DNA of 64,000 bases. It comes from Trueperaceae bacterium (lineage in GTDB: Bacteria; Deinococcota; Deinococci; Deinococcales; Trueperaceae). Below are positions 2,169-63,505 of this stretch, in pieces; within the stretch, counting starts at the first letter, position 1, and each line of letters opens with the position of its first letter. The notes under the pieces are model-generated. The model was given only the letters and a program-made list of their open reading frames with translations, was not told the origin of the DNA and ran no database searches. Position numbers and translations under genes: made by a program. The stretch spans positions 288,001-352,000 of the forward strand of contig CBDCDZ010000004.1 of NCBI GenBank assembly GCA_965215565.1, read 5' to 3'.

Positions 2169-2624
2169 CTATTCACCGAGGTATACACGCAACTTGGTGT
2201 TGAAGAATGAAATACGCTGTAAATTTGATGATACGCAAAAAATTTGCCCTGCACAGGGGAGGCGCAGGGCACTTAGAGAGGAGATGGCGGAGGCACGGCT
2301 CAACGTCCTAGCCTCCTCGCTTAGCACTCGGCTAAACTGAGGGTAGTTTACGGGAAAGACTCTTACAAAGTTCTTACAACTGCACATCGCGAAAGTTGGG
2401 TGGAGGATTTGCAAAGAGGTTTTCACGGTAGCGATAGCGTCATCTTCGAAACCGTCTTCTACGTCGAGCCAGAAGTCGATGTCGGAGCAAGCGTCCACGC
2501 GGTTTAGGGCACCGGCACCCTCGAGCCACGCTGCGTGGATGCTCGGATGATGCGAACAGGTCTCGCGGAGCGTCTGAACGATGGCGTTTCTAGCAGAGAT
2601 GTGAATGGCGTCAGACTCGAGCAT
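2169..2624 (-). pseudogene. Truncated nucleotidyltransferase-domain protein
   Basis: N-terminal WLEGAGALNRVDACSDIDF resembles the GS...DxD NTase motif; sequence becomes non-protein-like after about aa 75. Confidence 0.55.
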
Positions 2625-2701
2625 CCGTACAAGCCTAACCTTTCGCAGTCATCGCCTGTTCAGCTTCTTTTCGCTCACACGATTCGCGTTATGCTCCCTC
2701 C

Positions 2702-3952
2702 ATGATTAGACGAGCGGAATTTTTGAGCGTCGGTACGGAACTCCTACTCGGCGAGATTGTGGATACGAACAGCGCGTGGCTCGCTCAGGATGTAGCGCGG
2801 CGCGGCGTGGACGTACTCTGGTCGCAGCGTGTTGGGGATAACTTAGGGCGCATCGTGGAAGGTCTGAATCAAGCCTTATCGCGCAGCGACTTAGTGGTGA
2901 TGTGTGGCGGCTTGGGTCCAACGGATGATGACATGAGCCGCGAAGCGATCTCGGAGGCGGTAGGGGAGACGCCCGAAGTCGATGAGGCTTTAGAGCGCAC
3001 CTTGCGCGAGTGGTTCCAGACGTTCAGCCGCACGATGCCCGAGCGCAACCTCAAACAAGCGTGGCTCATTCCCTCGGCGGAGGCGCTGCCCAACCCGTTA
3101 GGAACTGCGCCGGGGTGGTTTGTGCGCACAGGTGACGGAGCGGCTGAGAAGGTGATCGTGGCGTTGCCGGGTCCACCCAGGGAACTGCAAAGGATGTGGC
3201 TTAAAGAGGTGGTGGGGCGGCTCGAGCTGCCCCAGTCCGCCCTCTACAGCAAAACCTTCAAAACACAAGGGCTGGGCGAGTCGGCGGCGGCGGAGAAGTT
3301 GGGTGAATTGACCCTCCGAGCCAACCCGAGCGTCGCCACCTACGCCAAACGTGACGGCGTCCACGTGCGCGTGGCGGCAAAAGCGGAGACCGACGAGGAA
3401 GCCGAGCAACTTGCTGCGCCCGTCGCCAGTCAGGTGCGGGGCGCGCTGGGCTCGCGCATTTGGGGCGAGGACGACGACGAACTCGCCGCGCTCATCGTTC
3501 AGAAACTAAAAGAGAACGGCAAAACGCTCGCGCTCCTAGAAGGCGTCACGAGCGGGCTCCTTAGCGACCTCATCACCTCGGTTGCGGGCGCGCCCTCGGT
3601 TTACCCCGGCGGCGTGGTAGCCTGCGGTGCGCAGACGAAGGCAGCGTTTGGCGTGCCCGAAGAGGTTTTGGATGCGCATGGGGACGTTTCAGAGGAGACC
3701 GCTAAAGCGATGGCGAAGGCTGCTGCAGAGCGCTTTTCGTCGGACTACGGGCTCGCCACAGTAGGCGTTCCTGGTCCCTCCGAAGAGGACGGCAAACCCG
3801 TCGGCGAGATGCACCTAGCGCTCTACGACGCGGCGCAGCGTACGGGCGAGGCGCGCAGCTTCAAGCTCCCCGAGTTGGAGCGCAACTGGCTCCGCGAACG
3901 CACCGCTTACGCCGCACTCGCCTTTTTGTGGGTACATCTGCGAGATGAATAG
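2702..3952 (+). CDS. cinA: CinA family protein (MocF-like domain + PncC-like domain)
   Basis: [32 protein letters not shown]; directly upstream of recA. Confidence 0.93.
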
Positions 3953-4008
3953 TTGATTTTAGCTCAGCAGCTTCGCGCTGCTTAACCACCTATCACTTGG
4001 AGGCACTT

Positions 4009-5055
4009 ATGGACGAACAACGAAAACGCAGTTTGGACACCACCCTCTCGCAGATCGAGAAACAGTTTGGCAAAGGGGCTGTCATGCGCCTGGGCGACGA
4101 AGGGAGCCTGACCCCCCAAGGCGTCATCTCAACGGGCTCGATGTCAGTGGACTTGGCATTAGGGGTAGGCGGGGTACCGAGAGGACGGATCATCGAGGTG
4201 TACGGACCCGAGTCCGGGGGTAAAACCACGCTCTCACTTCATATCGTGGCGGAAGCGCAAAAACAAGGCGGCGTGGCTGCGTTCGTAGACGCCGAACACG
4301 CCCTGGACCCCTCCTACGCGAAAGCACTCGGCGTGGATACCGAAAACCTGCTGGTCTCGCAACCCGATACGGGCGAACAAGCCTTGGAGATCACCGAACT
4401 CCTGGTTCGTAGCGGCGCAGTGGACGTGATCGTGGTGGACTCGGTGGCTGCTCTCGTGCCCAGGGCTGAAATCGAAGGGGAGATGGGCGACTCTCACGTC
4501 GGCTTACAAGCCCGCTTGATGAGCCAAGCCTTGCGCAAGCTAACAGGTGTTTTATCCAAAAGCCACACCACGGCGATTTTTATCAACCAGATCAGAGAGA
4601 AGATCGGCGTGTTGTACGGCAACCCGGAGACGACGCCTGGGGGACGCGCCCTGAAGTTCTACTCCTCAGTCAGGATGGAAGTGAGACGTAAAGGGGACGT
4701 GAAGTCGGGCGCAGATAAGGTAGGGAACCGCACCCGGGTCAAGGTCACGAAGAACAAAGTTGCGCCGCCCTTTAAGGAAGCGGAAGTGGAGATCATGTTC
4801 GGACGGGGGATTGACAAACTCGGGGACCTGATCAACATCGCTAGTGACTTAGACATCGTGCAGAAGTCGGGCTCGTTCTATAAGTACGAGGGCAGTACGA
4901 TTGGGCAGGGCAAGGAGAAAGCGAGTACCTACCTAGAGGAGCACCCACAGCTCATCGAGGAGGTCAAGCAGAAGGTCATGGCTGCGATTCAAGGTGTGCC
5001 CTATGAGCCTAAAGTGGGTGGGGATGATGGGGACGGGGAGGCTGATGAGGAATGA
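4009..5055 (+). CDS. recA: Recombinase RecA
   Basis: [40 protein letters not shown] before ATG 4009. Confidence 0.99.
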
Positions 5056-6722
5056 ACGCCCTCCTATTCATCGTCGCGCTGCTCTTGGGCGGCGCGGTAG
5101 GGGGGGTGATCGGCTTTTTAGTGCGCCAGCGCCGCGACGAAGAGGTCACCGCGCGGGCGCAGGAGGAGGCGGCTGAGCTTAGACGCAGCGCTCAAGAGGA
5201 GGCGGAGCGCGTTGTCTCGGGGGCGCAAGCCGAACGGCGCGACCTCATCGCAGCGGAGCGCGAAAGGTTGGAGGCGGAAGCGCTTAGAGCAAGAAATATC
5301 TTAGAAGCCGATCTAGAGCGCCTTCGTCAGGTTGCCCAGGAGGACCTCTCGAGAGGTCGCACTGCCCTGGAAGAGGAACGCGCCAGCGTGCGCGAACTGC
5401 GCGACGAGGTCAAGCGCGACCGTGAGCGCGTGGACGCCTCCGAAGAGCGCCTCAACAGGCGAGGGGAGCAGCAAGACGCTCGCGCCCTGCGCCTGGACGA
5501 TCAAGAGGAACGCTTAGACGCGCGCGAAGCGGAGTTGAGGGTCAAGGCCGACGATCTCGACAAGGAGCGTGCCGAAGTCGAGCGCCAGCTCTACGAGACC
5601 GCGCAACTGACCCGCGAGGGAGCCTCCGAGATTATCCTCACCCGTCTGGACGGCGAGTTGGAGCGCGAAAAAGCCACGCGCATCCGCGCCGAACTCGACA
5701 AAGCGGACGCTGAAGCCAAGCGCAAGAGCACCAACATCATCGCGCAAGCGATTCAGCGAAGCGCGTCAGAAGTTTCTGCCGCCATCAGCGTCTCCGTCGT
5801 GCCCATTCCCAGCGACAACATGAAAGGGCGTATCATCGGGCGCGAGGGGCGCAACATCCGCGCGTTTGAAGCCCTGACGGGCGTGGACCTCATCATCGAC
5901 GACACACCCGAAGCCGTGCTGCTCAGCTCGTTTAACCCTATCCGCCGCGAGGTTGCCAAGCTCGCCCTGACCGAACTCGTCGCCGACGGGCGCATCCACC
6001 CCGCCCGCATCGAGGAGATGGTGCAAAAGGCGCAGACCGAGATGCAGTCCTATATCCGTGAGCGCGGCGACGAAGCCGCCTTAGAAGCTAACATCGTCGG
6101 CATCAAACCGGGGATGCTGCAACTCTTAGGGCGGATGCACTTTCGCACCTCTTACGGGCAAAACGTCCTCATCCACTCCGTCCAGGTGGCGTACCTCACG
6201 GGCATCATCGCTGCTGAAATCGGGCTGGACGAGAACCTAGCGCGGCGTGCCGGGCTGCTGCACGACATCGGCAAGTCCATCGACCGCGAAATCGAGGGCA
6301 CCCACACCGAAATCGGCGCGAACTTAGGGCGTCGCTTCGGTGAGTCGAAAGAGGTCATCGACGCGATTGCCCACCACCACGACTTAGAACTCGCCGAAAC
6401 GCTCTATCCGGTTATCGTCTCCGCTGCCGACGCGATTAGCGCGGCGCGTCCCGGCGCACGCCGCGAGACGTTGGAGACCTACCTCAAACGCTTGGAAGGC
6501 TTAGAGAGTATCGCCACAAGCTTCCCTGGCGTCGAAAAGTCCTACGCCATCCAAGCCGGACGCGAAATCCGCATTATCGTCGAGCCGGAAAAGGTGGACG
6601 ACGCCTCGGCCGTTCTACTCGCTAGGGATGTCGCCAACCGCATCGAGCAAGACATGGAGTATCCGGGGCAGGTTCAAGTCACCGTTGTGAGGGAATCCAG
6701 AGCGGTGCAGTACGCGAGGTAG
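5052..6722 (+). CDS. rny: Ribonuclease Y
   Basis: N-terminal TM helix, coiled coil, KH ([16 protein letters not shown]), HD (LLHDIGK). Confidence 0.97.
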
Positions 6723-6796
6723 AGAGAAAGGTTAAAGAGAAAAGGACTGAGAGAAAAGTAAAATCTTTCACCTCAGTCCTTTTCTCTTTTCTCTCG
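6722..6796. repeat. Purine-rich/pyrimidine-rich inverted repeat, possibly the terminator of cinA-recA-rny
   Basis: agagaaaaggactgag...ctcagtccttttctct. Confidence 0.6.
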
Positions 6797-6864
6797 CCTT
6801 GTACAACCTCGAGCCCCACCCCCTCCACACGGTAAACTTGGGCTATCTTCTCCCTGGAGGCTCC

Positions 6865-8958
6865 GTGCTAACGCTACCTGAAAAACTTTTATTTGTCGTT
6901 TTGGCTATGGTTTCATTTTATTTTACGTATATCGGTTTCAAACGCATCGTAGACGCGGTTCGGCGTGGCGATAAGGGCTACTATCCGCGCTTCAACCATC
7001 TGAGCGAGCGCATCGGCAAGTCTTTAGCGCGAACACTTTCGCAGGAGTCGGTCTTTAAGGATAGACCCGTCGCGAGCGCGTTTCACTCATTTATCTTTTA
7101 CGGCTTCGTCTTCTATGCGCTGGTGAATGTGATGGATGGATTGGAGGGCTTCGTCCCCGCTGCCTACCATCCCGACTGGGGCTTCGTCGGCAATGTGTAC
7201 CGCTTCGGCGCGGATATCTTTAGCGTTTTAGTCATCATCGGCGTCGTTTATTTTCTGGTCAGACGCTTTATCACGGGCGATAAGCGGTTGGCGTTCAACG
7301 AGAATACACCGCTTCATGAAAAGGTCAGAGCAGGCAGCATCAAACGTGACAGCCTCATCGTCGGCGCGTTTATTATCCTGCACGTCGGCTTTCGGCTCTT
7401 CGGCGCGGGCTACCTCTTGGCGGCGGAAGGTCACTTGGACGCTTGGCAACCCTTCGCAAGTCTGATTGCCAATATTGCAGGCTTTGGCGATAACCGCATC
7501 ATCGGCTGGCACATCGGCTGGTGGGGGGCGCTGGGGCTCATTCTCGCCTTTTTGCCGTATTTTCCGCGCAGCAAACACATTCACCTCTTCGCGGCTCCGG
7601 TGGATTACGCCTTAGAGCGTCGCTATGAGGATGGACGCGAGGTCTCGACAGGAGCGCTAGAACCGATTGACTTTGAGGACGAAACCTTAGAGCAGTTCGG
7701 CGTGGCGAAACTAGAGCACCTCCGCCAAACTCAGCTCTTGGACGCCTACGCCTGCATCCAATGCAACCGCTGCACGAACGTCTGCCCCGCGCAGCAGACG
7801 GGCAAAGCGCTCTCGCCTGCTGCCCTCGAAATCAACAAACGCTACGAACTCAACCAAGTCTCACCGCTTCTCGCGGCGGGCGAAGAAACGCCGCGCCCTG
7901 TAATGGACTTCGTGCTGGACGAAGCCTCTTTATGGGCGTGCACGGCGTGCGGAGCGTGCATGGACATCTGTCCGGTGGGTTGCAACCAGATGATCGACAT
8001 CATCGACATCCGCCGCGACCAGGTGATGATGCAAGGCGAATTTCCCGCCGAACTCGCCAATGCCTTTCGCGGCATGGAGCGCACGGGCAACCCCTGGGGC
8101 ATCTCGCAGGACAAGCGTGAAGAATGGACCCAAGATTTACCGGGATTAGAGGTTCCGACTGTCGAGCAGAACCCCGACTTCGAAGTGCTTTACTGGGTGG
8201 GCTGCGCGGGCTCCTACGACCCGCAAGCGCAAAAGACAGCGCGGTCTATGGCGTCCATTTTAGACCATGCAGATATCAACTACGCTATCTTAGGACGCGG
8301 CGAGAAGTGCACAGGCGACCCGGCGCGGCGCTCCGGCAACGAATACCTCTACTATCAGTTGGCGACCGAAAACGTGATGACCTTGAACGAGGTCTTGGTT
8401 GACCAAGCACTAGACGAGTCTAAGAAAAAGCGCGTCGTCACCACCTGCCCGCACTGCTTCAATGCCCTTCTGAACGACTATCCGCAGCTCGGTGGCGACT
8501 ACGACGTGGTGCACCACACGCAGCTTATCGAAGAGCTGATGCAAGTTGGAAAGTTGCCCCCGCTCGACCTCTCGGGTAACGTCACCTATCACGATCCTTG
8601 CTATCTGGGACGGCACAACGGCGAGTACGACGCACCTAGAAATATTTTACAAACGAGCGGCTTGAGCCTCACTGAGATGCCACGCAACCGGAACAATTCG
8701 TTCTGCTGCGGCGCGGGCGGCGCGCAGTTTTGGAAAGAGGAAGAAGCGGGAACCGAGCGCGTTTCAGAAAACCGCTACCGTGAGGCGAAGGCGACGGGCG
8801 CGGAAAAGGTGGCGACGGGCTGTCCGTTTTGTAAGGTGATGCTCTCGAGCAGCGACAGCGCCGAAGCCGAAAACGCTCCTGAAGTGGTGGACGTGGCGCA
8901 AATTGTGGCAGACCGTTTAGAGCGTATTTCAGCGCGGTTGAGGAGTGCAGCAGGTTAG
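6865..8958 (+). CDS. Membrane-bound Fe-S oxidoreductase (FadF/HdrD-like, CCG domains)
   Basis: TM N-terminus; CIQCNRCTNVCP and CTACGACMDICP; YHDPCYLGR; CCGAGG; GGAGG before GTG 6865. Confidence 0.9.
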   Translation: MLTLPEKLLFVVLAMVSFYFTYIGFKRIVDAVRRGDKGYYPRFNHLSERIGKSLARTLSQESVFKDRPVASAFHSFIFYGFVFYALVNVMDGLEGFVPAAYHPDWGFVGNVYRFGADIFSVLVIIGVVYFLVRRFITGDKRLAFNENTPLHEKVRAGSIKRDSLIVGAFIILHVGFRLFGAGYLLAAEGHLDAWQPFASLIANIAGFGDNRIIGWHIGWWGALGLILAFLPYFPRSKHIHLFAAPVDYALERRYEDGREVSTGALEPIDFEDETLEQFGVAKLEHLRQTQLLDAYACIQCNRCTNVCPAQQTGKALSPAALEINKRYELNQVSPLLAAGEETPRPVMDFVLDEASLWACTACGACMDICPVGCNQMIDIIDIRRDQVMMQGEFPAELANAFRGMERTGNPWGISQDKREEWTQDLPGLEVPTVEQNPDFEVLYWVGCAGSYDPQAQKTARSMASILDHADINYAILGRGEKCTGDPARRSGNEYLYYQLATENVMTLNEVLVDQALDESKKKRVVTTCPHCFNALLNDYPQLGGDYDVVHHTQLIEELMQVGKLPPLDLSGNVTYHDPCYLGRHNGEYDAPRNILQTSGLSLTEMPRNRNNSFCCGAGGAQFWKEEEAGTERVSENRYREAKATGAEKVATGCPFCKVMLSSSDSAEAENAPEVVDVAQIVADRLERISARLRSAAG

Positions 8959-8977
8959 AGAAGAAGCGAGTCGGTAT

Positions 8978-9040
8978 TTCAGCCGGTCAGCTAGTCAGGT
9001 TTTTGCTCTTTCTGACAAGCTGAAGTGCTGACAAGCTGAC
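8978..9040. repeat. Inverted heptamer array (TCAGCTA-type)
   Basis: tcagccggtcagctagtcagg...ctgacaagctgaagtgctgacaagctgac. Confidence 0.7.
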
Positions 9041-9098
9041 GCGCCTTCAGGACATTCGCCCTACCTCCAAATCCGCCTCGAGCTTCTATACTAAAGAC

Positions 9099-9692
9099 AT
9101 GAACCGACTCTGGCTCTTAGCCTCTCTCGCCCTGCTTTCGGTGTGCTTGGCGGTGTTCAGCTTCTACCAACTGAGCCGCGCCTCGTCCGCGGAGCTTTAC
9201 GGCACCGTCGTGGATAGCAAACCTGTGGTGGGCGAAATTGAACTGACTAACGGCGAGGGCAAGCGCGTCAAGCTCTCGGATTATCAGGGCGATGTACTTT
9301 TAGTCTTCTTCGGTTTTACGAACTGCCCCGACGTGTGCCCGATGACGATGGGACGTCTCGGCAAAATGTACCGAGATATGGGCGAACCCGACGACGTACA
9401 AGTCGCCATGATCACCGTTGACCCGGCGCACGATACGCCCGAGGTTTTGGCGAACTACGTCAGCGCGTTTCACCCTGACTTTGCGGCGCTGAGCGGCTCG
9501 CAAGCGGACATCGCGAACGCGGCGAAGACGTTTTTTGTCGGGTATAGGGGTATCGAAGATAAACAGTTCGTCCACACGGATACGGTGGCGATGCTTGACC
9601 GTGAAGGGCGGATGCGCCTCGTGTATGGTCAAGATAAAGTCAAGCATATCGGGGAAGATTTAGAGACGGTGCTAGCACAACGGGACTTCTAA
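9099..9692 (+). CDS. SCO1/SenC family copper chaperone
   Basis: FFGFTNCPDVCP, TVDPAHD, conserved His (VHT); N-terminal anchor. Confidence 0.92.
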   Translation: MNRLWLLASLALLSVCLAVFSFYQLSRASSAELYGTVVDSKPVVGEIELTNGEGKRVKLSDYQGDVLLVFFGFTNCPDVCPMTMGRLGKMYRDMGEPDDVQVAMITVDPAHDTPEVLANYVSAFHPDFAALSGSQADIANAAKTFFVGYRGIEDKQFVHTDTVAMLDREGRMRLVYGQDKVKHIGEDLETVLAQRDF

Positions 9693-10489: not shown

Positions 10490-10495
10490 AATATA

Positions 10496-10606
10496 AAGCA
10501 GTTCACAGAAGTACTGAATTGGAAGAGCGCAAGCATCATTTAAGAATATGCGTGTTCGCCCAAGTTCTCTAACGTGAGACTGGCTCAAACCAAATGATAC
10601 TTGCTA
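10496..10606 (+). mobile_element. MITE-like element, copy A (111 bp core, no insert)
   Basis: AAGCAGTTC...GATACTTGCTA flanked by TA; nearly identical to 63605-63805 apart from that copy's insert. Confidence 0.85.
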
Positions 10607-10649
10607 TAGATGTCTAGTTTGGACGCTCGGCGGGTGTTTGTCAAGGTGC

Positions 10650-10681
10650 AAAAAGCCTACAACCTTCCGGGCTGTAGGCTT
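10650..10681 (-). terminator. Intrinsic terminator of the Crp/Fnr gene
   Basis: Minus strand AAGCCTACAGCC-CGGAA-GGTTGTAGGCTT followed by TTT. Confidence 0.7.
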
Positions 10682-10686
10682 GATTA

Positions 10687-10797
10687 TAGCGGTTATCAGA
10701 AGTACTGAGCTTGAATCACGCAGATATCATCCCTTAAAGTGCGTGCTGTACGATATTTTATCTCGTGAGATTGGCTCAAACCAGATGATACCTGCTA
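10687..10797 (+). mobile_element. MITE-like element, copy B (111 bp core, no insert)
   Basis: TA-TAGCGGTT...CCAGATGATACCTGCTA-TA. Confidence 0.85.
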
Positions 10798-10815
10798 TAG
10801 TAGCGCTGTTTGAAC

Positions 10816-11466: not shown

Positions 11467-11525
11467 AAATGATTATACTCGCTGATTGTCACGCAGCGAG
11501 TATCACATGTCATGTTGAGCGCAGT

Positions 11526-12806: not shown

Positions 12807-12821
12807 GTAAGCTCCTAAAAG

Positions 12822-14394: not shown

Positions 14395-14416
14395 AGCGCA
14401 CCTCTCATGATGTGCC

Positions 14417-14441
14417 AAAAAAAAGCGCCGTCAGCGCGGCG
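14417..14441 (-). terminator. Attenuator terminator of the pyr leader
   Basis: Minus strand CGCCG-cgctga-CGGCG-C followed by 8 T. Confidence 0.75.
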
Positions 14442-55262: not shown

Positions 55263-55263
55263 G

Positions 55264-56214
55264 CTAATCCCTCAAAAGCTGAAAGAGAATCGCTTTATGT
55301 GCGTGTAGCCTGTTCTCCGCCTGGTCGAAGACGCGGCTGCGCTCGTGGTAAACGGCTTCTTCGGTGCACTCCTCGCCGTAGTGCGCGGGCAAGTCGTGCA
55401 TGAAAATACCTCTTTCGGAGAGGTCAGCAAACCACTCTGGCGTCACCGTGTAGCCCGCGAACGCCTCCCTGCGCCGCTCGGTCTCCTCCTCTTGCCCCAT
55501 AGAAATCCACACGTCGGTATAGAGAACATCGGCACCTCTCACTGCTTTACGCGGGTCTCTTTCGATGGTCACGTCCGCGCCGCTCTCTCTCGCCTGTTCC
55601 AGCACCCCTTCATCTGGGTCGAACCCTTCCGGGCAGACGATGGTTAGGGAGGTCCCTGCGTGCATCGCCGCATACAGGTGCGAGTTGGCGACGTTGTTGC
55701 CGTCGCCCACAAAGCAGACCTTGACGCCCTCCAACACACCAAATTCCTCTTTAAGCGTGAGGTAGTCCGCCGTGAGTTGACAGGGGTGCACCAAATCCGA
55801 GAGCCCATTGATGATCGGCACGTGTGCATAGCGGGCGAGTTCTACCAATGTGCCGTGCCCGTAGGTCCGCGCCATGATGCCCTCCACCCAGCGCTCCAAG
55901 TTGTGCGCCACATCTTTAATCGTTTCGCGCACGCCCCAGCCGATGTAGTTCTGGCTCAGCAAGACCGAGTGCCCGCCAAGTTGGTACATGGCGATGTCGA
56001 AGGTCGAGCGGGTGCGTAAGGACTGCTTCTCGAAGATCATCGCAATGGTTTTGCCCTGCAAGTAAAGAGGTCGTTCGCCGCGCTTGAAGTTGTTTTTCAT
56101 GATGTGGGCGCTCTGCAAAAGCCCTTCGAACTCCTCTTTAGAGAGATCGGCGAGGGAGAGGAGGTCGCGCCCTTTGAGGCTGTCAACGGCGGGTACGTCG
56201 GCGGTTGTGGTCAT
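55264..56214 (-). CDS. argF: Ornithine carbamoyltransferase
   Basis: FEKQSLRTR, HPCQ, GDGNNVA, DVWISMG, QAENR; GGAAGG before ATG 56214. Confidence 0.95.
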   Translation of the reverse strand: MTTTADVPAVDSLKGRDLLSLADLSKEEFEGLLQSAHIMKNNFKRGERPLYLQGKTIAMIFEKQSLRTRSTFDIAMYQLGGHSVLLSQNYIGWGVRETIKDVAHNLERWVEGIMARTYGHGTLVELARYAHVPIINGLSDLVHPCQLTADYLTLKEEFGVLEGVKVCFVGDGNNVANSHLYAAMHAGTSLTIVCPEGFDPDEGVLEQARESGADVTIERDPRKAVRGADVLYTDVWISMGQEEETERRREAFAGYTVTPEWFADLSERGIFMHDLPAHYGEECTEEAVYHERSRVFDQAENRLHAHKAILFQLLRD

Positions 56215-56311
56215 TAAAGTTCCTTCCGGGTCCAAGTGTGTTGAAAACTCGAGTCCCAAGAAACCGATAGTATATGCAGCGAGGTGTATAAATCAAGCAA
56301 ATAAAGGAAAT

Positions 56312-56806
56312 TTAGTTATCGTTGGCGATGAGAACATTTAGTGTCTCCTGTGCCTGTATTCGCGCTTGCAGGTCTGCTCGACCTGGTTGTTCTTCAATTT
56401 GCTTTTTAGCGCTTTGTAGGTTGATGCCATTAGCATTGCGCTCCAGCTTTTGTCTAATTACAGGGCTATCGTACTTCGCTTCGCGGATAGTCCAAGCGGT
56501 ATCGTATCGCACCCAAGCCTCCGGGTCTGACAATTTGTCCGTTAGCGCTTCTTTAAGCCCTGGCACATCGAACATCTGAGAGTGACGACATGCGCTTATA
56601 GCAATACGCCTGACAATCATGTTCGGGTGTTCAAAAAGCTCGTTAATTAGTCGCGCAATAACTTTCTCCTGTTTGGGTAGCTCGGAAAACGCCACGGAAA
56701 GCTGAATCATATCAATTGGCATTATCGGAAAGCTACTACCAAGTTTTATCGATTTAGCGGCTAATCGGTCAAAGCGAGAAAGCATGTTCACAGTTGGCAG
56801 CTTCAA
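56312..56806 (-). CDS. HEAT-repeat protein
   Basis: HPNMIVRRIAI, LSDPEAWVRYDTAW; AT-rich; start uncertain. Confidence 0.65.
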   Translation of the reverse strand: MKLPTVNMLSRFDRLAAKSIKLGSSFPIMPIDMIQLSVAFSELPKQEKVIARLINELFEHPNMIVRRIAISACRHSQMFDVPGLKEALTDKLSDPEAWVRYDTAWTIREAKYDSPVIRQKLERNANGINLQSAKKQIEEQPGRADLQARIQAQETLNVLIANDN

Positions 56807-56807
56807 T

Positions 56808-57947
56808 CTAAACTCCTAACATCCCCAAATACCACCCCGCCAGCGCGTCCCCGTAAAACAGCGCAATCAGCCCACCAATCGCCAGGTACGGACCAAACGG
56901 AACCACCCGTCCGCCGCCAAACGCTTTAAGCGTAAGCCCGCCCGCCGCGCCAATAAAGAACGATAAGAGGAGCGCCACCAAGAGGTTCTGCCAACCCAGC
57001 ATCACGCCTAAAACCGCCGCGAGCTTCACGTCACCAAAACCCATCGCGACGGGCTCGTCATCCTCTTCGTTGAGTACACCTTCTTCGTTTGGCGCTTTAC
57101 CGAGTAGGTCCAAAATCCACCAATACACCGCCCCTAAAACCGCTACCGAGCCCGCCGCCGCTAACGAGCCACTAAGCGAACTGATGCCGAGGTAGACGCT
57201 ACCCGCGCCGAGCGCTAGCACCCATAAGCCGTAAAGAAGAGGTTCGGAGAGCCTGAGCGTGCGGCGTGTGACGAGGTTAGCGACGACGGACGCAGCCGCG
57301 AGCACTAGGCCGACGGTCCAGCCGCCCAGCGCGCCGCCTACAAACGCCACGTTCACCTGGTCCAAACCGATAGGGAAGAGCCGCTCTTTGGTGTCAGCAA
57401 AGCGGCGCAGCACGAGCGCGCCCAAGCGGTTGATCAGCACGATGATACCCGCGCCTAACGCGCCGCCAAAGAGTGCTGCTTGCAGGCTCGGTAAGCCGCC
57501 AGGCGTCGCGTAGAAAAAGCTGCCCAGAAGCCCTACGGCGATAGCGGGTAACGTCAAACTGTCGGGCAGGATGTACTCGTCGATGTCAATCGCCGACATC
57601 ATCACGAGCATGGCGTAAATCGCGGCGAGGATAAACGCGGTTAAGCCGTACTGCTCGATGGGGTAGCGCAGCGCAATCAGTACGAAACCGAGCGCGGTGA
57701 TCGCTTCAATTAAAGGATAGCGTAGCGCGATGCCCTCTTTGCAGCCCCGGCAGCGTCCGCGCAGGGCGAGCCAGGAGAAAATGGGAACGAGGTCCAAAAC
57801 GGTCAGTGGGCGCTCACAGTTCGGGCAGTGTGAGCCGGGGAAGGCGATGGACTCGCCGCGCGGCACGCGGTAGATCACGACGTTGGCGAATGAGCCGATT
57901 AAAGCGCCTAGTACGCCAAGCAGTGAGACAGTAACGAGGGTCAACAT
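56808..57947 (-). CDS. pilD: Prepilin peptidase / methyltransferase
   Basis: GSFANVVIYR, SHCPNC, GRCRGC, IDIDEYILPD, MGFGDVKL, PFGPYL. Confidence 0.93.
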   Translation of the reverse strand: MLTLVTVSLLGVLGALIGSFANVVIYRVPRGESIAFPGSHCPNCERPLTVLDLVPIFSWLALRGRCRGCKEGIALRYPLIEAITALGFVLIALRYPIEQYGLTAFILAAIYAMLVMMSAIDIDEYILPDSLTLPAIAVGLLGSFFYATPGGLPSLQAALFGGALGAGIIVLINRLGALVLRRFADTKERLFPIGLDQVNVAFVGGALGGWTVGLVLAAASVVANLVTRRTLRLSEPLLYGLWVLALGAGSVYLGISSLSGSLAAAGSVAVLGAVYWWILDLLGKAPNEEGVLNEEDDEPVAMGFGDVKLAAVLGVMLGWQNLLVALLLSFFIGAAGGLTLKAFGGGRVVPFGPYLAIGGLIALFYGDALAGWYLGMLGV

Positions 57948-58046
57948 AAGGGGCATTATAGGTTTGGGGAGGGTATTTATGGCGTGTGATTTTGGGCATT
58001 TGCGGCTTACGAGGTGCAGCGGTCACTGATATTTCGTAGCGTCTGC

Positions 58047-58096
58047 GTCAGCTAATCAGCGTTTTAGGAATTAAAAGCTGACGTGCTGAAATGCTA
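58047..58096. repeat. Inverted heptamer array (TCAGC-type)
   Basis: tcagctaatcagc...gctgacgtgctgaaatgct. Confidence 0.6.
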
Positions 58097-58202
58097 CTTT
58101 CTATCCCAGCCAAAAGAATCCAACCAACGTTAAGCATATCGTGAAGCCCGTAACGGTTTTTAAGAGGATGCATTCTCATCCTCCCCTCGGTATACTGCCC
58201 CC

Positions 58203-58697
58203 ATGAAGCGATTTTTACCCGTTACTCTACTCGTAAGCCTTCTCTCTCTCTTCGCGCTCGGCGCGGCGCAGGACGAACTCAACATCGCCTTTGTGGACGC
58301 GGGCGCGGTTTTAGCGGCGCATCCCGCCGGGGCGCAGGCGCAGCAGTTGGAGGAGCAAGCCAGAACCGAACTCGGCGAGATTCAAGCGAACGTCGCGCCG
58401 CTCCTAGAGCGTCTCAACGCGGGCGAAGAGCTGACCGCTGAGGAGCGCAGCACCTTAGACCTCTCGCAGCGCACCTATCAGGAGACCCAAGCGCGTTACC
58501 GCGAGGAGATTCAAGCGACAATTCAACCCGCAGAAGAGGCGGTGGACGCAATTATTCAAGAAATCGCTCAGACGAACGGCTACACGCTCGTGCTTAACCA
58601 AGGGGTCGCGGCAAGCTCGGCGCTCGTCGTCTACGCGGCGGAGGGCTTTCCCAACATCACCCAAGAGGTCATCGACCGCGTCAACGCGGGCGGCTAG
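58203..58697 (+). CDS. OmpH/Skp family periplasmic chaperone
   Basis: Signal peptide, IAFVD, coiled coil, GYTLVL...VVYA...NITQEV. Confidence 0.88.
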   Translation: MKRFLPVTLLVSLLSLFALGAAQDELNIAFVDAGAVLAAHPAGAQAQQLEEQARTELGEIQANVAPLLERLNAGEELTAEERSTLDLSQRTYQETQARYREEIQATIQPAEEAVDAIIQEIAQTNGYTLVLNQGVAASSALVVYAAEGFPNITQEVIDRVNAGG

Positions 58698-58700
58698 AGA

Positions 58701-58816
58701 TAGCAGGTATCATCTGGTTTGAAACACTCTCACTTTTGACAACATTGTGCAGCACGCACATTCTGAGATGAGGTTCCGTTACAGCAAGCTGTGAAATCTG
58801 CGCTTATCCGTCTCAG
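58701..58816 (-). mobile_element. MITE-like element, copy G (24-nt insert; one end replaced)
   Basis: TAGCAGGTATCATCTGG...cgcttatccgtctcag followed by an AAGGGG..CCCTT palindrome. Confidence 0.8.
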
Positions 58817-58854
58817 CAAGGGGTTGAAGTCCCTTATACGAAGTCCAGGCGGCG

Positions 58855-59595
58855 CTAAGCGTCGCCCTCTTTTTTAGCTTGTAGTGTCTTCAAAAAGGTT
58901 CTGTCAGCGTTGGTGAGGTTCGCGTGCTCGAGCAAATCCGGTCTCCGCGCCAGCGTGCGTTCTAATGCCCGTTCGCGCCGCCACCTCTCGACGTTCGCGT
59001 GGTGTCCACTCGTCAAGATTTCGGGGATGCCCATACCTTCATATTCAGCCGGACGGGTGTATTCGGGGTAGTCCAAGAGCCCTGTCGAGAACGAATCCTG
59101 CTCATAACTTTGCGCGTCGCCCAACACGCCCGGCACGAGCCGCGCCGTCGCTTCAATCAGCGCTAGCGCCGCGATTTCGCCGCCCATGAGCACGTAATCG
59201 CCGATGCTGACCTCTTTGATGACGAAAGACTCCACCCTCGCGTCAAACCCCTCATAGCGTCCTGAAAGTAAACAAAGGTGCTCTTTCGCCGCCAAATCCT
59301 CTGCCATCTTTTGCGTGAAGGGTTCGCCAGCAGGGGAGAGCAGAATCACCTCATCGGGCAGCGATTCCCTTTTGACCGCTTCAATCGCCCGCGCCGCAAC
59401 GTCCACCCGAATGACCATCCCCGCGCCGCCGCCATAAGGTGTGTCGTCCACGTTTCGGTGCTTATTCTCGGCGTAGTCGCGCAAATCGCGCACGTCGAAG
59501 CTGAGGTGTCCGTTTTTCACGGCGCGTCCTAAGAGGGCTTCTTCGGTCCAAGGACGCAAGAGGTTGGGGAAGAGGGTGAGGAGGGTGTATTTCAT
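58855..59595 (-). CDS. trmD: tRNA (guanine-N1)-methyltransferase
   Basis: [35 protein letters not shown]. Confidence 0.97.
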
Positions 59596-60105
59596 TTAGC
59601 TAGGTTCGAGCAACCCCTCCGGCGCATTTTCGATCACGATACCCTCGTCGCTAATTTCCACATAATCGGCTTGGAGCGGCACCAGATATTCTTCACCTTC
59701 GTGGAGAATTGCCAAGAGGTCTTGGAAGCCTGCGGAGATCACGTCGACGACTTCGCCGAAGGCTTCGCCGTCCACGTATACGGGAAGCTCGAGCAATAGT
59801 TCTAAATAGAACCCCTCTTCGGGCTCGGGTAGGTCTTCAGCCCTCGCGTAGACCTCTTCATTGACGAGGGGTTTGGCTTGTTCGATTTTGGTAATGCCCC
59901 CGAGATACACCACTGTTTGACCACCGACGCGCCGCACCTGCGTCAGTCTGCGCTCGCCCAAACTCGTGACGAAAACGCGCTCCAGCTTGAAGATCGCCTC
60001 CGCCTCCGCCTGACCCAAACCGTAAAAACGGAGACCCCCGGCGAGTTGGAAGGTCTTTCCCAACGTGCCGAGGAGCAGGGCGTTTTCGGGCGGTTCTACT
60101 GCCAC
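59596..60105 (-). CDS. rimM: 16S rRNA processing protein
   Basis: Position in rpsP-khpA-rimM-trmD; LPEPEEGFY, PRC-barrel-like C-terminus. Confidence 0.9.
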   Translation of the reverse strand: MAVEPPENALLLGTLGKTFQLAGGLRFYGLGQAEAEAIFKLERVFVTSLGERRLTQVRRVGGQTVVYLGGITKIEQAKPLVNEEVYARAEDLPEPEEGFYLELLLELPVYVDGEAFGEVVDVISAGFQDLLAILHEGEEYLVPLQADYVEISDEGIVIENAPEGLLEPS

Positions 60106-60112
60106 GTGCTAG

Positions 60113-60343
60113 TTAATCAATGAGGTGAACGTCGACGCGCTGCCGCCCGTCTGCAGCGGCGCGGGCGAGCGTGCGGATGCTGTTGATCAGGCGTCCGCCG
60201 CGCCCGATGATGCGCCCCGCGTCACCCTCCGCACAGTGAATCTCGATGTGGACGCCGCGCGCGTCGGCGCGCGACTCGACGCGGAGCTTGTCGGGCTCCT
60301 CCACGAGATTTTGTAAGGCGAAGGTAACAAGTTCTAGGGGCAT
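60113..60343 (-). CDS. khpA: KH-domain RNA-binding protein
   Basis: GRIIGRGGRLINSIRT. Confidence 0.9.
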   Translation of the reverse strand: MPLELVTFALQNLVEEPDKLRVESRADARGVHIEIHCAEGDAGRIIGRGGRLINSIRTLARAAADGRQRVDVHLID

Positions 60344-60351
60344 GGCTCGCT

Positions 60352-60654
60352 CTACGCGCTCGCTTGCGTTCTCGCTTCGTAGGCGCTCGAGCGCTTCGCT
60401 TGAACCTTGCCCACCGTGACGCCGGACTTCTCTAAGAGCCGAATGGCTGCGCCCGTGGGCTGCGCGCCCTGCGAGAGCCAGTGCTCCGCGCGTTCGACGT
60501 CGATTTTAAGAGGCGTTTCGCTCTTTTCGCGCGGGTCGTAGTAGCCGAGCGACTCGATGTAGTCGCCGCTACGCTTGGTGCGGGCGTCGGTGACGACGAC
60601 GCGGTAGTGGGGGTTCTTTTTTGCGCCAAGGCGCGTTAAACGGATTTTAACCAT
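60352..60654 (-). CDS. rpsP: 30S ribosomal protein S16
   Basis: [30 protein letters not shown]. Confidence 0.98.
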
Positions 60655-60697
60655 GCTGTTTCCTCTTTCCTGAATGTTAGAGATACTCAGTTCTGCC

Positions 60698-60963
60698 GGA
60701 CGGTTCTCTTAATGTTTACTGATCTTGCACCACGCAGATTTCACGGTCTCATTGTAACGGAACCTCATCTTTTGATGTGCGTCCGAGGCGATACCTTCTA
60801 GGCTAGGTGTGTTGCTTCGCCTAGCGGGAGCGGGACCACGCAACTTAACTTCGTTCACTATGACCAGATGACATCCCGCTCTCAGGCAAAGCCGGTCCGC
60901 TAGGCTCTGCCTGAGAGCGGGATGGCTTACGGCTGAGCGCGAAGCCTACGAAGTAACCTGCTA
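60698..60963 (+). mobile_element. MITE-like element, copy H (most heavily nested), between ffh and rpsP
   Basis: cgcagatttc...tcatc, gatgtgcgt, tgaccagatga[insert]cctgcta; left end approximate. Confidence 0.75.
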
Positions 60964-60976
60964 TCAGTGTACACTA

Positions 60977-62284
60977 TCAGCGCCCTAGACTGCGTCCCAT
61001 CCCTCTACCGGGTTGACGCTTGCCCATCTTTTTCATCATCTTCTTCATCTGCTCGTAGTTCTTCATCAGGCGGTTGATGTCCTGGACGCTCGTCCCCGAG
61101 CCCGCCGCGATGCGTTTGCGGCGGCTCGCGTTCAACACCTTGGGTCTGCGCCGCTCTTTTTCCGTCATGGACGAGATAATGGCTTCGATGCGGGCGATTT
61201 CGCCCTCGTCGATGTCTGCGCCGCCCAACATCTTGCTCGCGCCGGGAATCATCTTGAGAATGTCGGTGAACGAGCCCATCTTCTTGATCTTTTGCATCTG
61301 GGTAAGCATGTCCTGCAGGGTGAAATCCTTGAGGCTCGTGACCTCGTCGTCGTCGCCCTCTAAGACTTTCGCCTTTTCGATGAGCGTCATCACGTCGCCC
61401 ATGCCGAGGATGCGGCCCGCCACGCGGTCGGGGTAGAAGGGCTCTAAGCCGTCTATTTTCTCGCTCATCCCCGCGAAGTAGATGGGCTTGCCCGTGACGT
61501 GCTTCGCGGAGAGCGCTGCGCCGCCCCGCGCGTCGCCGTCGAGTTTCGTCATGATGAGACCCGAGACGCCCACGCGCGCGTCGAAGGCGGTGGCGACGGG
61601 CAGCGTTTGCTGTCCGGTCATGGCGTCCACGACGAGCATCGCCTCGTTAGGCTCTAGCGCGTCTTTAAGCTCAGCAAGCGCGTCCATGAGGTTTTCGTCG
61701 ATCTGCAAACGCCCCGCCGTGTCCACGATGATGAGGTCGCGGTAGTTCGTCTTGAGGTAGGCTTGCAGGCGCTCTTTGGTGCGCCCCGGCGCTTCGTCGT
61801 CCTCGACTTCTAAAACGGGCACGCTGATCTGCTGACCCAACACGCGGAGTTGGTCACGCGCTGCCGGGCGCTGCGTGTCCGCCGCGATGAGAAGAGGTCT
61901 ACGTCCCTGCGCTTTGTATTTGTACGCGAGCTTGCCCGCTGTCGTCGTCTTACCAGCACCCTGCAAACCCATGAGCATCCACACGTTTTGCTCGCTCTGG
62001 AGGCTAGGCTGCGCCGCCTTGCCGCCTAAGATATCCACAAGCTCGTCGTGGACGATGGAGATTACGCGCTGCTCGGGTTGGAGTGACATCAAAACTTCGG
62101 AGCCGGTGGCTTTCTCTTGAACGCGCCTGGTGAACTCGCGAGCGACTTCCAAGTTGACGTCCGCCTCTAAGAGCGCCACGCGCACCTCGCGGAGCGCTGT
62201 TTTAACCTCCGCCTCGGTCAGTTTGCCGCGCCCGCGCAGCGAATCGAATACACCTTGTAGCCTGTCGCCTAAACTCTCAAACAT
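60977..62284 (-). CDS. ffh: Signal recognition particle protein
   Basis: [31 protein letters not shown]. Confidence 0.98.
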
Positions 62285-62414
62285 ATGGGTTCCTTACCGT
62301 CTAAAGAAAGACCGCTCCCTACCCTAGCGTACTCATGTAGGCGGGGTCAAGGCGTGGTGAGGCTCGAGATTGGCAAAGGTGCGCCTGACCCGCAGCATAC
62401 GGCTAGCCTAGTAA

Positions 62415-62594
62415 TAGCAGGTATCATCTAGTTTGAGTGTACGTAAGTTTTGCGAAGCAACGCTCACACCGTAAATAGCGCTGTTGCTAGGCAGCAAACT
62501 TGCGTAACTAGCGCGCACATTCCGAGATGAAATCCCGCTAGCCTTGACAGGCTGAGATCTGCGCTCATCCGTCTCAGTATGTTTGGAACTGCTA
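62415..62594 (-). mobile_element. MITE-like element, copy I (three inserts)
   Basis: TAGCAGGTATCATC...GGAACTGCTA-TA; 180 bp. Confidence 0.85.
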
Positions 62595-62598
62595 TAAG

Positions 62599-63090
62599 AT
62601 GCAGAGCGTGAGCGCCTACACCCTCCTCTACGCGCTGAGCGTCGTTCTCATCAATCCCTGGGGTGACGGGTGCGATCTGGACCGCCCCTAAAGTGTACGT
62701 CTTGACCGCGATCTTGCTCCTCAACGGCTTCTTTCTCAGCCGCTGTGAGCTGCTCGAGCTAGGGGCCGCTTGGCGGCGTTCCTGAGCGTCACGCTCATCC
62801 TGACGCTCGCGCTCGTCAGTTTAACGCGGCGGTGGCTGCGCCCGGAACTCGTGTGGGCTGTACTCGGCGCGGCGGGCTTCACTTTCTACGCCGCGCTGCT
62901 AGGCTACCTCCTGCTCGTCACCGCCCGGGGTCCCGCTGCGCCTTTAGAGGTGTTCACCGTCGTCTACCTCGGCTTCACCTTGACCTGGTACGACGCGGCG
63001 CAGTTTAGCCACCTCCCGGAGAGCGAACGGACCACCGATATCCCCACCGATACGTTTCCAGTCACCGGGCTCAACACCGGGTCCATCAGC
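62599..63090 (+). pseudogene. Frameshifted, internally deleted O-antigen-ligase-like membrane protein
   Basis: LINPWG then frameshift then IWTAPKVYVL, hydrophobic remnants, GFTLTWY. Confidence 0.5.
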
Positions 63091-63139
63091 GTCTTCACGG
63101 ACTCGAGTGACACCACGTCACGCAGCCTCTCAGCGTCCC

Positions 63140-63293
63140 CGCGCTTGGCATGGTCGCCCTCAACTCCCAAGAGGTCCCGCGCTAATTTCTGATGGTGGGT
63201 GCGGTCGTTGTCACGGTGCCCATCATAGTGCTCTTCTTCTGGTTCGAGAAGTATCTGGTTAGCAGGCTCACAGCGGGCGGGGTTAAGGAGTGA
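63140..63293 (+). pseudogene. C-terminal fragment of a MalG-type permease
   Basis: LNSQEVPR* then LMVGAVVVTVPIIVLFFWFEKYLVSRLTAGGVKE*. Confidence 0.65.
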
Positions 63294-63339
63294 AGCAACA
63301 CTCTTACTTATAAGAACATCGTTTCCTTTTGCTGCGCAA

Positions 63340-63505
63340 AAACTACGTAATCGGAAAACTGCGTCTGCTCGCTCACGCGGAGCAACTTTTAGAAATGTAG
63401 CGTGCACTTGATTGTGATGAAGTTCCGTTACAGTAAAGCTGTGAAATCTGCGGAGAAGTGTTGCTTCGCATAGTTGCACTCAAGCAATGAAACGTGGAAA
63501 TGCTA
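63340..63505 (-). mobile_element. Degenerate MITE-like element, copy J
   Basis: gatgaagttccgttacagtaaagctgtgaaatctgcg as in copy G; gtgttgcttcgcat module; GCTA end. Confidence 0.6.

Follow-up and report, generated by a model that had tools for sequence, protein, structure and literature searches.

The window, that is, the whole stretch of 64,000 bases analysed here, contained 105 CTCGAG sites (1.64 per kb), of which 104 lay within 2520–63476 and the remaining one at 63531–63536 (Table 1). The initial annotation had put the number at about 100 by hand count, against about 20 expected from base composition at 58% G+C. The count was nearly right and a plain composition estimate agreed with the expectation; dinucleotide-preserving shuffles (n = 100) gave a mean of 32.49 (sd 6.30, maximum 45), and none of the 100 reached 105. 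The O/E ratio in the window was 3.19 under a Markov model of order 1 and 2.96 under order 2. The word was absent from recA and ffh, as had been pointed out; of the 48 called ORFs lying wholly or partly in the window, 10 were free of it. Besides the tabulated pair, close pairs were found at 21756/21766, 25630/25642, 26203/26212, and 26514/26526. Genome-wide, the spacings of close pairs were near chance (about 10.5 expected per distance) except at multiples of three, with 25 pairs at 12 bases.

Table 1. CTCGAG sites and selected genes of the window.
Feature	Position	Strand	Basis
105 dispersed CTCGAG sites	2520..63536	.	Site list and shuffles; window's share of the genome total
recA, 0 CTCGAG	3997..5055	+	TIGR02012 recA, 547 bits
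CTCGAG pair, 10 bases apart	20431..20446	.	Site positions
956-aa ORF, 10 CTCGAG sites (highest count per ORF in the window)	41782..44652	+	Per-ORF count; no more than a weak glycoside hydrolase family match
ffh, 0 CTCGAG	60977..62284	-	TIGR00959 ffh, 557 bits

The whole genome (G000) carried 6,990 CTCGAG sites in 4,491,056 bases (1.55 per kb). The O/E ratios for Markov orders 1 to 4 were 2.89, 2.61, 2.15, and 1.34, and the word topped all 64 six-base palindromes at every order. The value at order 4 was just 1.34, though the 5-mers underlying that model are themselves inflated by CTCGAG. Its core TCGA was close to expectation (O/E 1.03–1.08), and the other NTCGAN contexts ranged from 0.76 to 1.17, save for the palindromes ATCGAT and GTCGAC at 0.31. 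Genome-wide, G stood at position −1 of 50% and C at +1 of 49% of the sites, GCTCGAGC occurred 1,642 times, and no conserved positions were found further out. The two flanking bases co-occurred at 23.5% of sites versus the 24.5% expected (0.50 × 0.49), which indicated that the half-sites were independent. A longer repeat or mobile element was ruled out, since nothing was conserved past the two flanking bases, and so was palindrome extension via template switching, as the flanks were mutually independent.

Reading frame, codon use and placement

Gene calls came from a rough in-house set of 3,426 ORFs covering 79% of G000. The sites had been described as lying in different frames and in intergenic gaps, and this was confirmed: the frames CTC GAG, nCT CGA Gnn, and nnC TCG AGn held 3,463, 427, and 1,427 sites, respectively, and gaps of up to 300 bases held 444 sites in 211 kb (2.1 per kb, O/E 5.35, first among all hexamers). 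Shuffling of synonymous codons (n = 20) gave 2,849, 64, and 307 sites for the same frames, with a total of 3,219 (sd 39) against 5,317 observed, so that the two off-frame classes were in 6.7- and 4.7-fold excess. Under frame-specific Markov models of orders 1–3, the O/E ratios were 1.4–1.9, 3.8–13.6, and 2.6–4.2. Among the 4,096 hexamers, five were enriched in all frames, namely CTCGAG and the four that make up AAGAGGT.

The excess might be a by-product of preferred Leu and Glu codons (CTC and GAG), combined with restriction avoidance of GAGCTC, CTTGAG, and other words that would funnel the sequence into CTCGAG. The CTC GAG frame indeed held 65% of the coding sites, CTC made up 39% of Leu codons and GAG 64% of Glu codons, and GAGCTC was reduced to 62 sites genome-wide (O/E 0.03). 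Glu after CTC was encoded by GAG in 92% of cases versus 63% elsewhere, CTT before GAG fell to 1% versus 12% elsewhere, and this avoidance of alternatives explains part of the in-frame excess; the in-frame O/E was 0.87 in the most codon-biased quarter of the ORFs. However, the off-frame excess uses the rare codon CGA (6% of Arg), the intergenic excess was 5.4-fold, and conservation in non-coding DNA was specific to the motif. The by-product reading was thus largely refuted by the codon shuffle, the frame-specific Markov models, and the intergenic excess, and we consider it very improbable. The initial annotation had named in advance the outcome that would speak against its own HIP1-like reading, the loss of the enrichment once Leu-Glu codon pairs and TCGA frequency were controlled; the excess persisted after the codon shuffle, the frame-specific models of orders 1–3, and the order-3 Markov model, which contains TCGA. 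The excess lies at the DNA level, not the protein level, and likely results from a pressure exerted on the word as DNA and not on the encoded proteins. Such a weak pressure would be opposed by constraint: the excess fell as codon bias rose, the O/E over the codon shuffle being 2.47 for the 10% of ORFs whose codon use was least typical and 1.24 for the top quarter.

The sites showed a Poisson-like scatter (spacing CV 0.97; variance/mean 0.96–1.03 from 1 to 50 kb), and each sixteenth of the chromosome held 402–456 of them; in evenness, the word ranked 6–12 among 207 abundant hexamers. No periodicity was detected, including the range of 10–90 kb (top spectral power 11.7 versus 14.6 at the 95% permutation level). 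Intergenic density did not differ among convergent, divergent, and tandem gaps, which ruled out a terminator or promoter element.

The excess extended over all three frames, the intergenic DNA, the chromosome, the three small replicons, and a 52-kb mobile element. The small replicons (C1–C3) and the Tn7-like element carried 1.5–2.5 sites per kb, with order-1 O/E ratios of 5.9, 4.0, 7.1, and 2.6 versus 2.85 for the chromosome. Slow amelioration of foreign DNA was ruled out for CTCGAG, as mobile DNA and atypical ORFs were richer in it, not poorer. AAGAGGT is a second, non-palindromic word that behaves like CTCGAG in the same genus. On C1–C3 and the Tn7-like element it dropped to 0.17–0.31 versus 1.43 per kb, which indicated that this genus-specific excess is missing there. 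No preferred spacing between the two words was found, and a composite signal was rejected.

A Chi-like recombination signal read by AddAB is another conceivable role, and G000 encodes an AddB-like protein with an adjacent AddA-like protein. However, Chi is defined by its orientation, which a palindrome lacks, and no skew between replichores was seen for GCTCGAG/CTCGAGC (16 bins). AddB-like matches were detected in 32 of the 151 genomes of the order, including 14/36 in family f1 (mostly in genera without CTCGAG excess), 9/36 in the CTCGAG-avoiding family f2, and 1/19 in the hyper-rich family f5; the survey used the G000 AddB-like protein as its one query and may miss divergent AddB. A Chi-like function is therefore regarded as highly unlikely.

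Conservation and spread among relatives

Two sister species, G001 (third-position divergence 0.317) and G002, were compared with G000; CTCGAG density was 1.55, 1.57, and 1.57 per kb in the three species. In DNA classed as non-coding, which takes in uncalled genes and RNA genes, 39 sites were shared with G001 while 16 and 5 were private, and the conserved fraction of 0.79 versus 0.43 overall ranked first among 105 words. At 52 non-coding sites, 13 of which lay in one 4.3-kb stretch, the motif positions were 88% identical versus 77% for the flanks. The small non-coding sample against G002 gave 11 shared and 8 and 9 private sites (p 0.09). The coding conservation of CTCGAG ranked 15/481 (G001) and 2/175 (G002). 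GAG after CTC was retained in 133/141 cases versus 2,181/2,724 elsewhere (p 5e-6); CTC before GAG was retained no more than elsewhere (120/156 versus 2,154/2,835), and conservation was not raised in the frame nCT CGA Gnn (6 shared, 15 and 16 private). CTCGAG sites were thus slower to change than their flanking positions and other synonymous sites. Gene order was scrambled, and the compared stretches held only 26 three-way orthologues, so that gains and losses were unpolarised and the excess may also be an ancestral relic that has since decayed in parallel.

Neutral, context-dependent repair or gene-conversion bias was considered as an explanation without function, in which mismatches within the word would be corrected toward it in genomes that are probably multi-copy. 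It accords with Poisson placement free of positional preference, with an excess that is strongest where constraint is weakest and higher on small replicons, with the turnover of off-frame sites at constant density in three species, and with the similar behaviour in the genus of the non-palindromic AAGAGGT. Against it, we know of no enzyme with such a bias for CTCGAG, Vsr is absent from G000, and the one-step neighbours of the word were only mildly depleted (order-2 O/E 0.61–1.13). Moreover, the conservation of HIP1 sites has been taken by Xu et al. (2018, PMC5861425) as counting against replenishment by biased repair, and CTCGAG is conserved too. We regard this neutral bias as possible but doubtful. 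A corrective repair bias would also slow the loss of CTCGAG, which softens the argument from conservation.

The comparison with other Deinococcota that had been proposed was carried out on the 151 genomes of the order, which were graded from avoidance through neutrality and 3-fold excess to above 50-fold. CTCGAG ranged from ten-fold avoided to about 6 per kb; f2 was the avoiding family and f5 the hyper-rich one. Within its order, G000 is a mild case of CTCGAG excess.

Methyltransferases and restriction systems

A HIP1-type model would have the sites marked by a CTCGAG-specific methyltransferase, and then created and kept either by methyl-directed repair or because methylated sites are selected for. 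Relatives offered some support. XhoI-family nucleases were found in 6 of the 151 genomes, together with two unrelated types of partner methylase (gamma and beta). The gamma-type partner (44–63% identity) occurred in the four f1 genomes G023, G063, G106, and G110, as well as in G026, G038, G076, G071, and G052, and three of those four f1 genomes showed the highest CTCGAG:CTCGAC ratios (11–19). The beta-type partner (62–66% identity) was present without the nuclease in 15 of the 22 genomes of genus g14, where a 148-kb sample contained 158 TCGA sites, 152 of them as CTCGAG. According to Elhai (2015, PMC4390886), frequent alternative HIPs were always accompanied by a matching methylase.

Against this model, searches of G000 (99.99% complete) returned no match to C5 methylases (PF00145), Vsr (PF03852), or XhoI-family nucleases (PF04555), and the two XhoI-linked methylases gave local matches of 22–46%, with no close homologue. 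Approximately 13 N6/N4 methylases were encoded, whose specificity is not legible from sequence. The comparison across the genus covered six stand-alone enzymes, apart from three of HsdM type and three of fused type IIG; none of the six had an orthologue in both sister species, though CTCGAG density was common to all three: L002 was found in G001 only, and L001, L003, L004, and L021 in neither sister. The link to a methyltransferase or methyl-directed repair suggested in the initial annotation was thus unsupported in G000.

An orphan D12-class adenine methylase located between hisA and a TetR gene in G000 had homologues (54–59% identical) in 8 of the 19 f5 genomes and in G128, in keeping with the methylation model. 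Its support as the driver failed, however, because it was broken by a 155-base repeat insertion in G001, G002 had just a 30% relative, and the CTCGAG O/E was 0.21 at 80 loci of other phyla with 48–64% identical homologues. Similarly, a TaqI/Eco57I-like methylase of 615 aa, whose closest relative of solved structure was M.BseCI (E 7.6e-9), was rejected as the cause, since it was found in 25/151 genomes but in none of f5, f3, or g14. Escape from TCGA restriction, as in g14, was inapplicable to G000 given its near-neutral TCGA frequency. The spread of CTCGAG across the order is independent of any single methylase, and we consider the methylation model unlikely for G000.

XhoI/PaeR7I restriction-modification shares the word and its components occur in relatives, but restriction usually depletes its site, whereas G000 enriches it and lacks both the nuclease and any close homologue of either partner methylase. 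VSP repair with Dcm (CCWGG) in enterobacteria ties repair to a methylated word, raising that word and lowering its deamination products. Unlike that case, G000 lacks Vsr and a C5 methylase, and CTTGAG/CTCAAG were only mildly low (O/E 0.62–0.95).

Likeness to HIP1 and uptake sequences

For thirty years, highly iterated palindromes have posed an unsolved puzzle, and nearly all work on them has dealt with cyanobacteria. CTCGAG is a milder counterpart of cyanobacterial HIP1 (GCGATCGC). Like HIP1 and the alternative HIPs as described in PMC4390886 and PMC5861425, it is a short, over-represented G+C-rich palindrome that occurs in all frames and between genes, with conserved sites and preferred G...C flanks. 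HIP1 sites are conserved within and between ORFs and are 15- to 300-fold over-abundant according to Xu, Lawrence, and Durand (2018, PMC5861425). CTCGAG, by comparison, is a different word in a different phylum, reaches approximately 3-fold (about 5-fold in intergenic DNA), lacks the 10–90 kb periodicity, and has no cognate methyltransferase found in G000 or shared in the genus. The HIP1-like behaviour claimed in the initial annotation therefore stood for frame independence, the non-coding peak, persistence after codon control, and interspecies conservation, and did not extend to the size of the excess or to periodicity; for the methyltransferase link, no support was found in G000. Our literature search, limited in extent, found no paper describing a CTCGAG excess.

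An uptake or recombination signal had been the other option in the initial annotation. The DUS of Neisseria and the USS of Pasteurellaceae are also similar in having about one site per kb, strands alike, frame independence, conservation, and lineage specificity; under a drive by uptake and recombination, the word would likewise be placed at random and be scarcer where constraint is strong. They are 9–12 bases long and not palindromic, and we know of no case of sequence-specific uptake in the phylum of the CTCGAG host. Unlike uptake sequences, CTCGAG showed a greater excess, and not a reduced one, in atypical ORFs and mobile DNA. comEA was present in G000; comEC was in two pieces, a Competence-domain part and a metallo-beta-lactamase part, which lay 52 kb apart on either side of Tn7-like genes, so that an uptake-based drive would not be expected to act now in this strain.

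CTCGAG is thus over-represented and conserved as a DNA word. The explanation we favour, at a probability of roughly one in three, is a weak pressure acting across the genome, under which the duplex word is favoured wherever the coding sequence leaves room for it. The gene pool of most of the order would share this pressure, and in the genus of G000 it is predicted to operate without a dedicated methyltransferase. We speculated that one protein might read the palindrome as a dimer, each half-site independently preferring GGCTC, during DNA exchange or repair; copies with CTCGAG would then have the advantage in uptake, in retention, or as templates for repair. The outcome would be a molecular drive or self-DNA watermark, of the kind suggested for uptake sequences and recently also for HIP1 (Rodriguez-Cruz et al., 2026, PMC13756078). 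Such a pressure could be either selection or biased repair. The reader protein is hypothetical, and no candidate was identified in the analysis of G000. A more specific version, which we hold to be rather unlikely, would make CTCGAG a watermark that needs no methylation and is shared across the gene pool of most Deinococcales: a putative, conserved protein would read the duplex in exchange or repair, circulating chromosomes, plasmids, and transposons would accumulate and keep the word, and the ten-fold-avoiding family would have made it a target. If true, this would be a second phylum-scale case after HIP1, dissectable by comparing neighbouring lineages in which the word is avoided, unbiased, or in 3-fold or 50-fold excess.

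More generally, a similar signal occurs here in another phylum, with another word, graded among relatives and apparently without a methyltransferase shared in the genus. This gradient, together with cultivable and transformable relatives, would make origins by methylation, DNA uptake, and repair bias separable. For annotation, AAGAGGT statistics separate native from recently acquired DNA, while CTCGAG statistics do not. In practical terms, XhoI sites are far commoner than expected.

Abundance and reading frame of CTCGAG

The window contains 105 CTCGAG sites, compared with a mean of 32.5 and a maximum of 45 in 100 dinucleotide-preserving shuffles. The whole genome (G000; 4,491,056 bases in four contigs, 58% G+C) holds 6,990 sites, with a density of 1.55 per kb for the chromosome and of 1.83–2.49 per kb for the three small contigs. 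The observed/expected (O/E) ratios were 2.89, 2.61, 2.15, and 1.34 under Markov orders 1–4, respectively. CTCGAG ranked first among the 64 six-base palindromes at each of these orders and third among all hexamers at order 2. The over-representation described in the initial annotation, which likened the word to cyanobacterial HIP1, was thus confirmed. Most other six-base palindromes were depleted, several to an extreme degree, among them GGCGCC (0.02) and GAGCTC (0.03–0.04). Genome-wide there were only 56 GGCGCC, 62 GAGCTC, 25 GCATGC, 58 CAGCTG, 39 TTTAAA, and 115 ACGCGT sites, and the O/E of GGCC was 0.17. CTCGAG was preceded by G in 50% and followed by C in 49% of sites, with a weaker G/C preference at −2/+2; genome-wide flank composition revealed no longer consensus beyond these near flanks, and the two flanks were independent (GCTCGAGC 23.5% vs. 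24.5% expected).

Crude gene calls, made from ORFs of at least 90 codons and their codon-use scores, yielded 3,426 ORFs covering 79% of the genome; synonymous codons were then shuffled 20 times inside each ORF as a codon control. The observed sites exceeded the shuffled ones in the frames CTC GAG (3,463 vs. 2,849), nCT CGA Gnn (427 vs. 64), and nnC TCG AGn (1,427 vs. 307). Frame-specific Markov models of orders 1–3 gave O/E ratios of 1.4–1.9, 3.8–13.6, and 2.6–4.2, respectively. At orders 2 and 3, an enrichment of 1.35-fold or more in every one of the three frames was seen for only five hexamers, namely CTCGAG plus four that jointly spell AAGAGGT/ACCTCTT. In intergenic gaps of up to 300 bases between called ORFs (211 kb, 50% G+C), CTCGAG was the top hexamer, with 444 sites (2.1 per kb, O/E 5.35), and its density was the same whether the gap was convergent, divergent, or tandem.

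Glutamate following a CTC codon was encoded by GAG in 92% of cases (63% elsewhere), and CTT made up 1% ahead of GAG compared with 12% elsewhere; part of the in-frame signal therefore reflects avoidance of CTT before GAG. A by-product of codon usage is nevertheless largely excluded as the explanation of the CTCGAG excess, because the excess over synonymous shuffling occurs in all frames and the O/E in gaps is 5.35. The codon shuffles, the frame-specific models, the gaps, and the use of GAG after CTC together indicate that the excess survives control for Leu-Glu codon-pair usage and TCGA frequency, and it did not vanish as it should have if these were its source. The O/E over the codon shuffle fell steadily from 2.47 in the least codon-typical tenth of ORFs to 1.24 in the quarter with the most typical codon use, and the absence of CTCGAG from recA and ffh is consistent with this trend.

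Placement, conservation and mobile DNA

Each sixteenth of the chromosome carried 402–456 sites. The coefficient of variation of spacing was 0.97, the variance/mean of counts was 0.96–1.03 in bins of 1 to 50 kb, and among periods of 5 to 200 kb none rose above the 95% permutation level. CTCGAG ranked 6th to 12th in evenness among 207 similarly abundant hexamers, and its density was 1.52–1.72 per kb in every G+C class of 10-kb windows.

Stretches of 400 and 215 kb were compared from two sister species of the same genus, G001 and the more distant G002, respectively. Gene order was scrambled among the three species, with 26 three-way orthologues in the fetched stretches; G000 and G001 shared 248 orthologues (median amino-acid identity 89%, third-position divergence 31.7%). 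CTCGAG occurred at 1.57 per kb in both sister species. In non-coding alignments with G001, 39 sites were shared and 16 and 5 were private; the conserved fraction of 0.79 (0.43 for all hexamers) ranked first of 105 words, followed by AAGAGG and ACCTCT. Across 52 non-coding sites, motif positions were 88% identical, compared with 77% in the 15-base flanks. The small non-coding sample against G002 showed no significant conservation. Coding sites ranked 15th of 481 words (G001) and 2nd of 175 (G002). Synonymous GAG was retained after CTC in 133 of 141 cases (2,181 of 2,724 elsewhere, p = 5e-6), and TCG within the motif in 63 of 74 (671 of 908 elsewhere, p = 0.04); no such advantage was seen for CGA within the motif (8 of 19) or for CTC before GAG (120 of 156). 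The nCT CGA Gnn sites turned over rapidly between G000 and G001 (6 shared, 15 and 16 private).

The second iterated word, AAGAGGT/ACCTCTT, had ~6,300 copies genome-wide (1.4 per kb vs. 0.15 for a control word; 1.73 in the window). All three reading frames showed its enrichment, the two strands carried it equally in each of the 16 chromosome bins, and it ranked among the best conserved hexamers between the sister species. Its excess was found in G000, G001, and G002 and was absent from samples of four other genomes of the order (G015, G026, G016, and G128). A dispersed repeat family with the core GATGATACCTGC (~300 copies) and related 12-mers also occurs genome-wide.

On all three small contigs, as well as on a Tn7-like element of 52 kb, CTCGAG occurred at 1.5–2.5 per kb. 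The element splits comEC, placing its metallo-beta-lactamase part 52 kb from the N-terminal part. These DNAs look recently arrived, since AAGAGGT is scarce on them, without excess, and they are less purged of GAGCTC than the chromosome. That they are already rich in CTCGAG suggests that its abundance is a feature of the gene pool at large.

Coordinates of the features and stretches discussed
Feature	Locus	Genome position
Window		G000:C4:288001-352000
comEA and N-terminal part of comEC, then Tn7-like genes (Mu-type transposase, TniB, TniQ); metallo-beta-lactamase part of ComEC 52 kb away	L187:9584-11658, L186:8773-9462	G000:C4:3660773-3715658
148-kb sample of genus g14	L022-L029	G015:C1:1-147640
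Six stand-alone methylases of G000	L001, L002, L003, L004, L020, L021	
D12-class methylase, G000	L105:6400-7400	
D12-class methylase, G001 orthologue	L102:5800-7000	
D12 homologues in other phyla	L106-L185	

These observations show that the pressure acts on the DNA word CTCGAG itself, since the excess is frame-independent, strongest under least constraint, randomly placed, slowly lost, stable in three species, and present in mobile DNA. We tentatively propose, with a probability of roughly one in three, a weak drive or selection by a protein that would recognize the palindrome in duplex form while DNA is being exchanged or repaired; the duplex GGCTCGAGCC is named as bait for seeking such a reader. 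A repair bias without function is a somewhat less probable source of the same pressure.

CTCGAG across the order Deinococcales

In 151 genomes of the order, CTCGAG was counted against CTCGAC, of equal composition. About two thirds of the genomes in f1, the family of G000, were unbiased (ratio 0.7–1.3), and the rest ranged from 1.8 to 19 (G000, 3.2). Family f5 had 12,000–35,000 sites per genome, about 5–7 per kb, and the O/E reached 57 in a 100-kb sample with 46% G+C. Family f2 had 37–1,193 sites against several-fold more CTCGAC, indicating avoidance, which was about ten-fold in nearly all 36 genomes; neither an XhoI-family nuclease nor an XhoI-linked methylase was found in these 36. Genus g14 (22 genomes, 1.9–2.5 Mb) had ~2,000 CTCGAG and 5–63 CTCGAC sites per genome, and TCGA was almost purged except within CTCGAG (152 of 158 TCGA sites in the 148-kb sample). 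The other genera of family f4 had 2.3–3.4 CTCGAG per kb.

A role like that of Chi is largely excluded, as an AddB-like gene, present in 32 of 151 genomes (9 of 36 in f2, 1 of 19 in f5), was not associated with the CTCGAG excess. No paper on CTCGAG in Deinococcales turned up in the literature searched, and Elhai (2015; PMC4390886) makes no mention of CTCGAG or Deinococcus.

Methyltransferases and nucleases

A mechanism tied to methylation, of the kind suggested for HIP1, is unlikely to be the cause. XhoI-family nucleases occurred in six of the 151 genomes. Beside them lay, in family f3, a beta-class methylase of 340 aa and, in G023, where the nuclease is broken, a TaqI-like (gamma-type) methylase. 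The beta type (62–66% identity) was found in 15 of 22 g14 genomes, which lack the nuclease, one g38 genome, 13 of 23 f3 genomes, and G022; in g14 it would shield CTCGAG from a TCGA-specific nuclease. The gamma type (44–63% identity) was found in nine genomes.

G000 yielded no match to C5 methylases, Vsr, or XhoI-family nucleases. It encodes ~13 N6/N4 methylases: four beta-class, two D12-class, one stand-alone TaqI/Eco57I-like, three HsdM-like, and three fused type IIG. The follow-up across the genus covered six stand-alone enzymes. The suggested link with an XhoI-type methyltransferase was not supported, given that G000 lacks the nuclease, both XhoI-linked methylase types have no more than local similarity in it, and none of the six enzymes occurs in both sister species. 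A cognate CTCGAG methylase in G000 is unlikely; sequence alone does not reveal the specificity of such enzymes.

One D12 methylase, flanked by hisA and a TetR gene, appears to be an orphan; homologues with 54–59% identity, also unaccompanied, were found in 8 of 19 f5 genomes and G128. G002 has no orthologue, and that of G001 is interrupted by a frame-breaking 155-base insertion of tandem copies of a unit found once in G000, possibly reflecting phase variation or decay. Eighty loci from other phyla with 48–64% identical homologues contained 36 CTCGAG sites vs. 170 expected, and were also poor in many other palindromes. This widely transferred family, often on small contigs or plasmids, spans cyanobacteria, candidate-phyla bacteria, Bacteroidota, Armatimonadota, an archaeal lineage, and others.

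Avoided words outnumber methylases in G000. Leucine before GAG is almost never CTT, and CTG is halved there, so that CTTGAG and CTGGAG show in-frame avoidance genome-wide; the three fused type IIG enzymes might target these two words.
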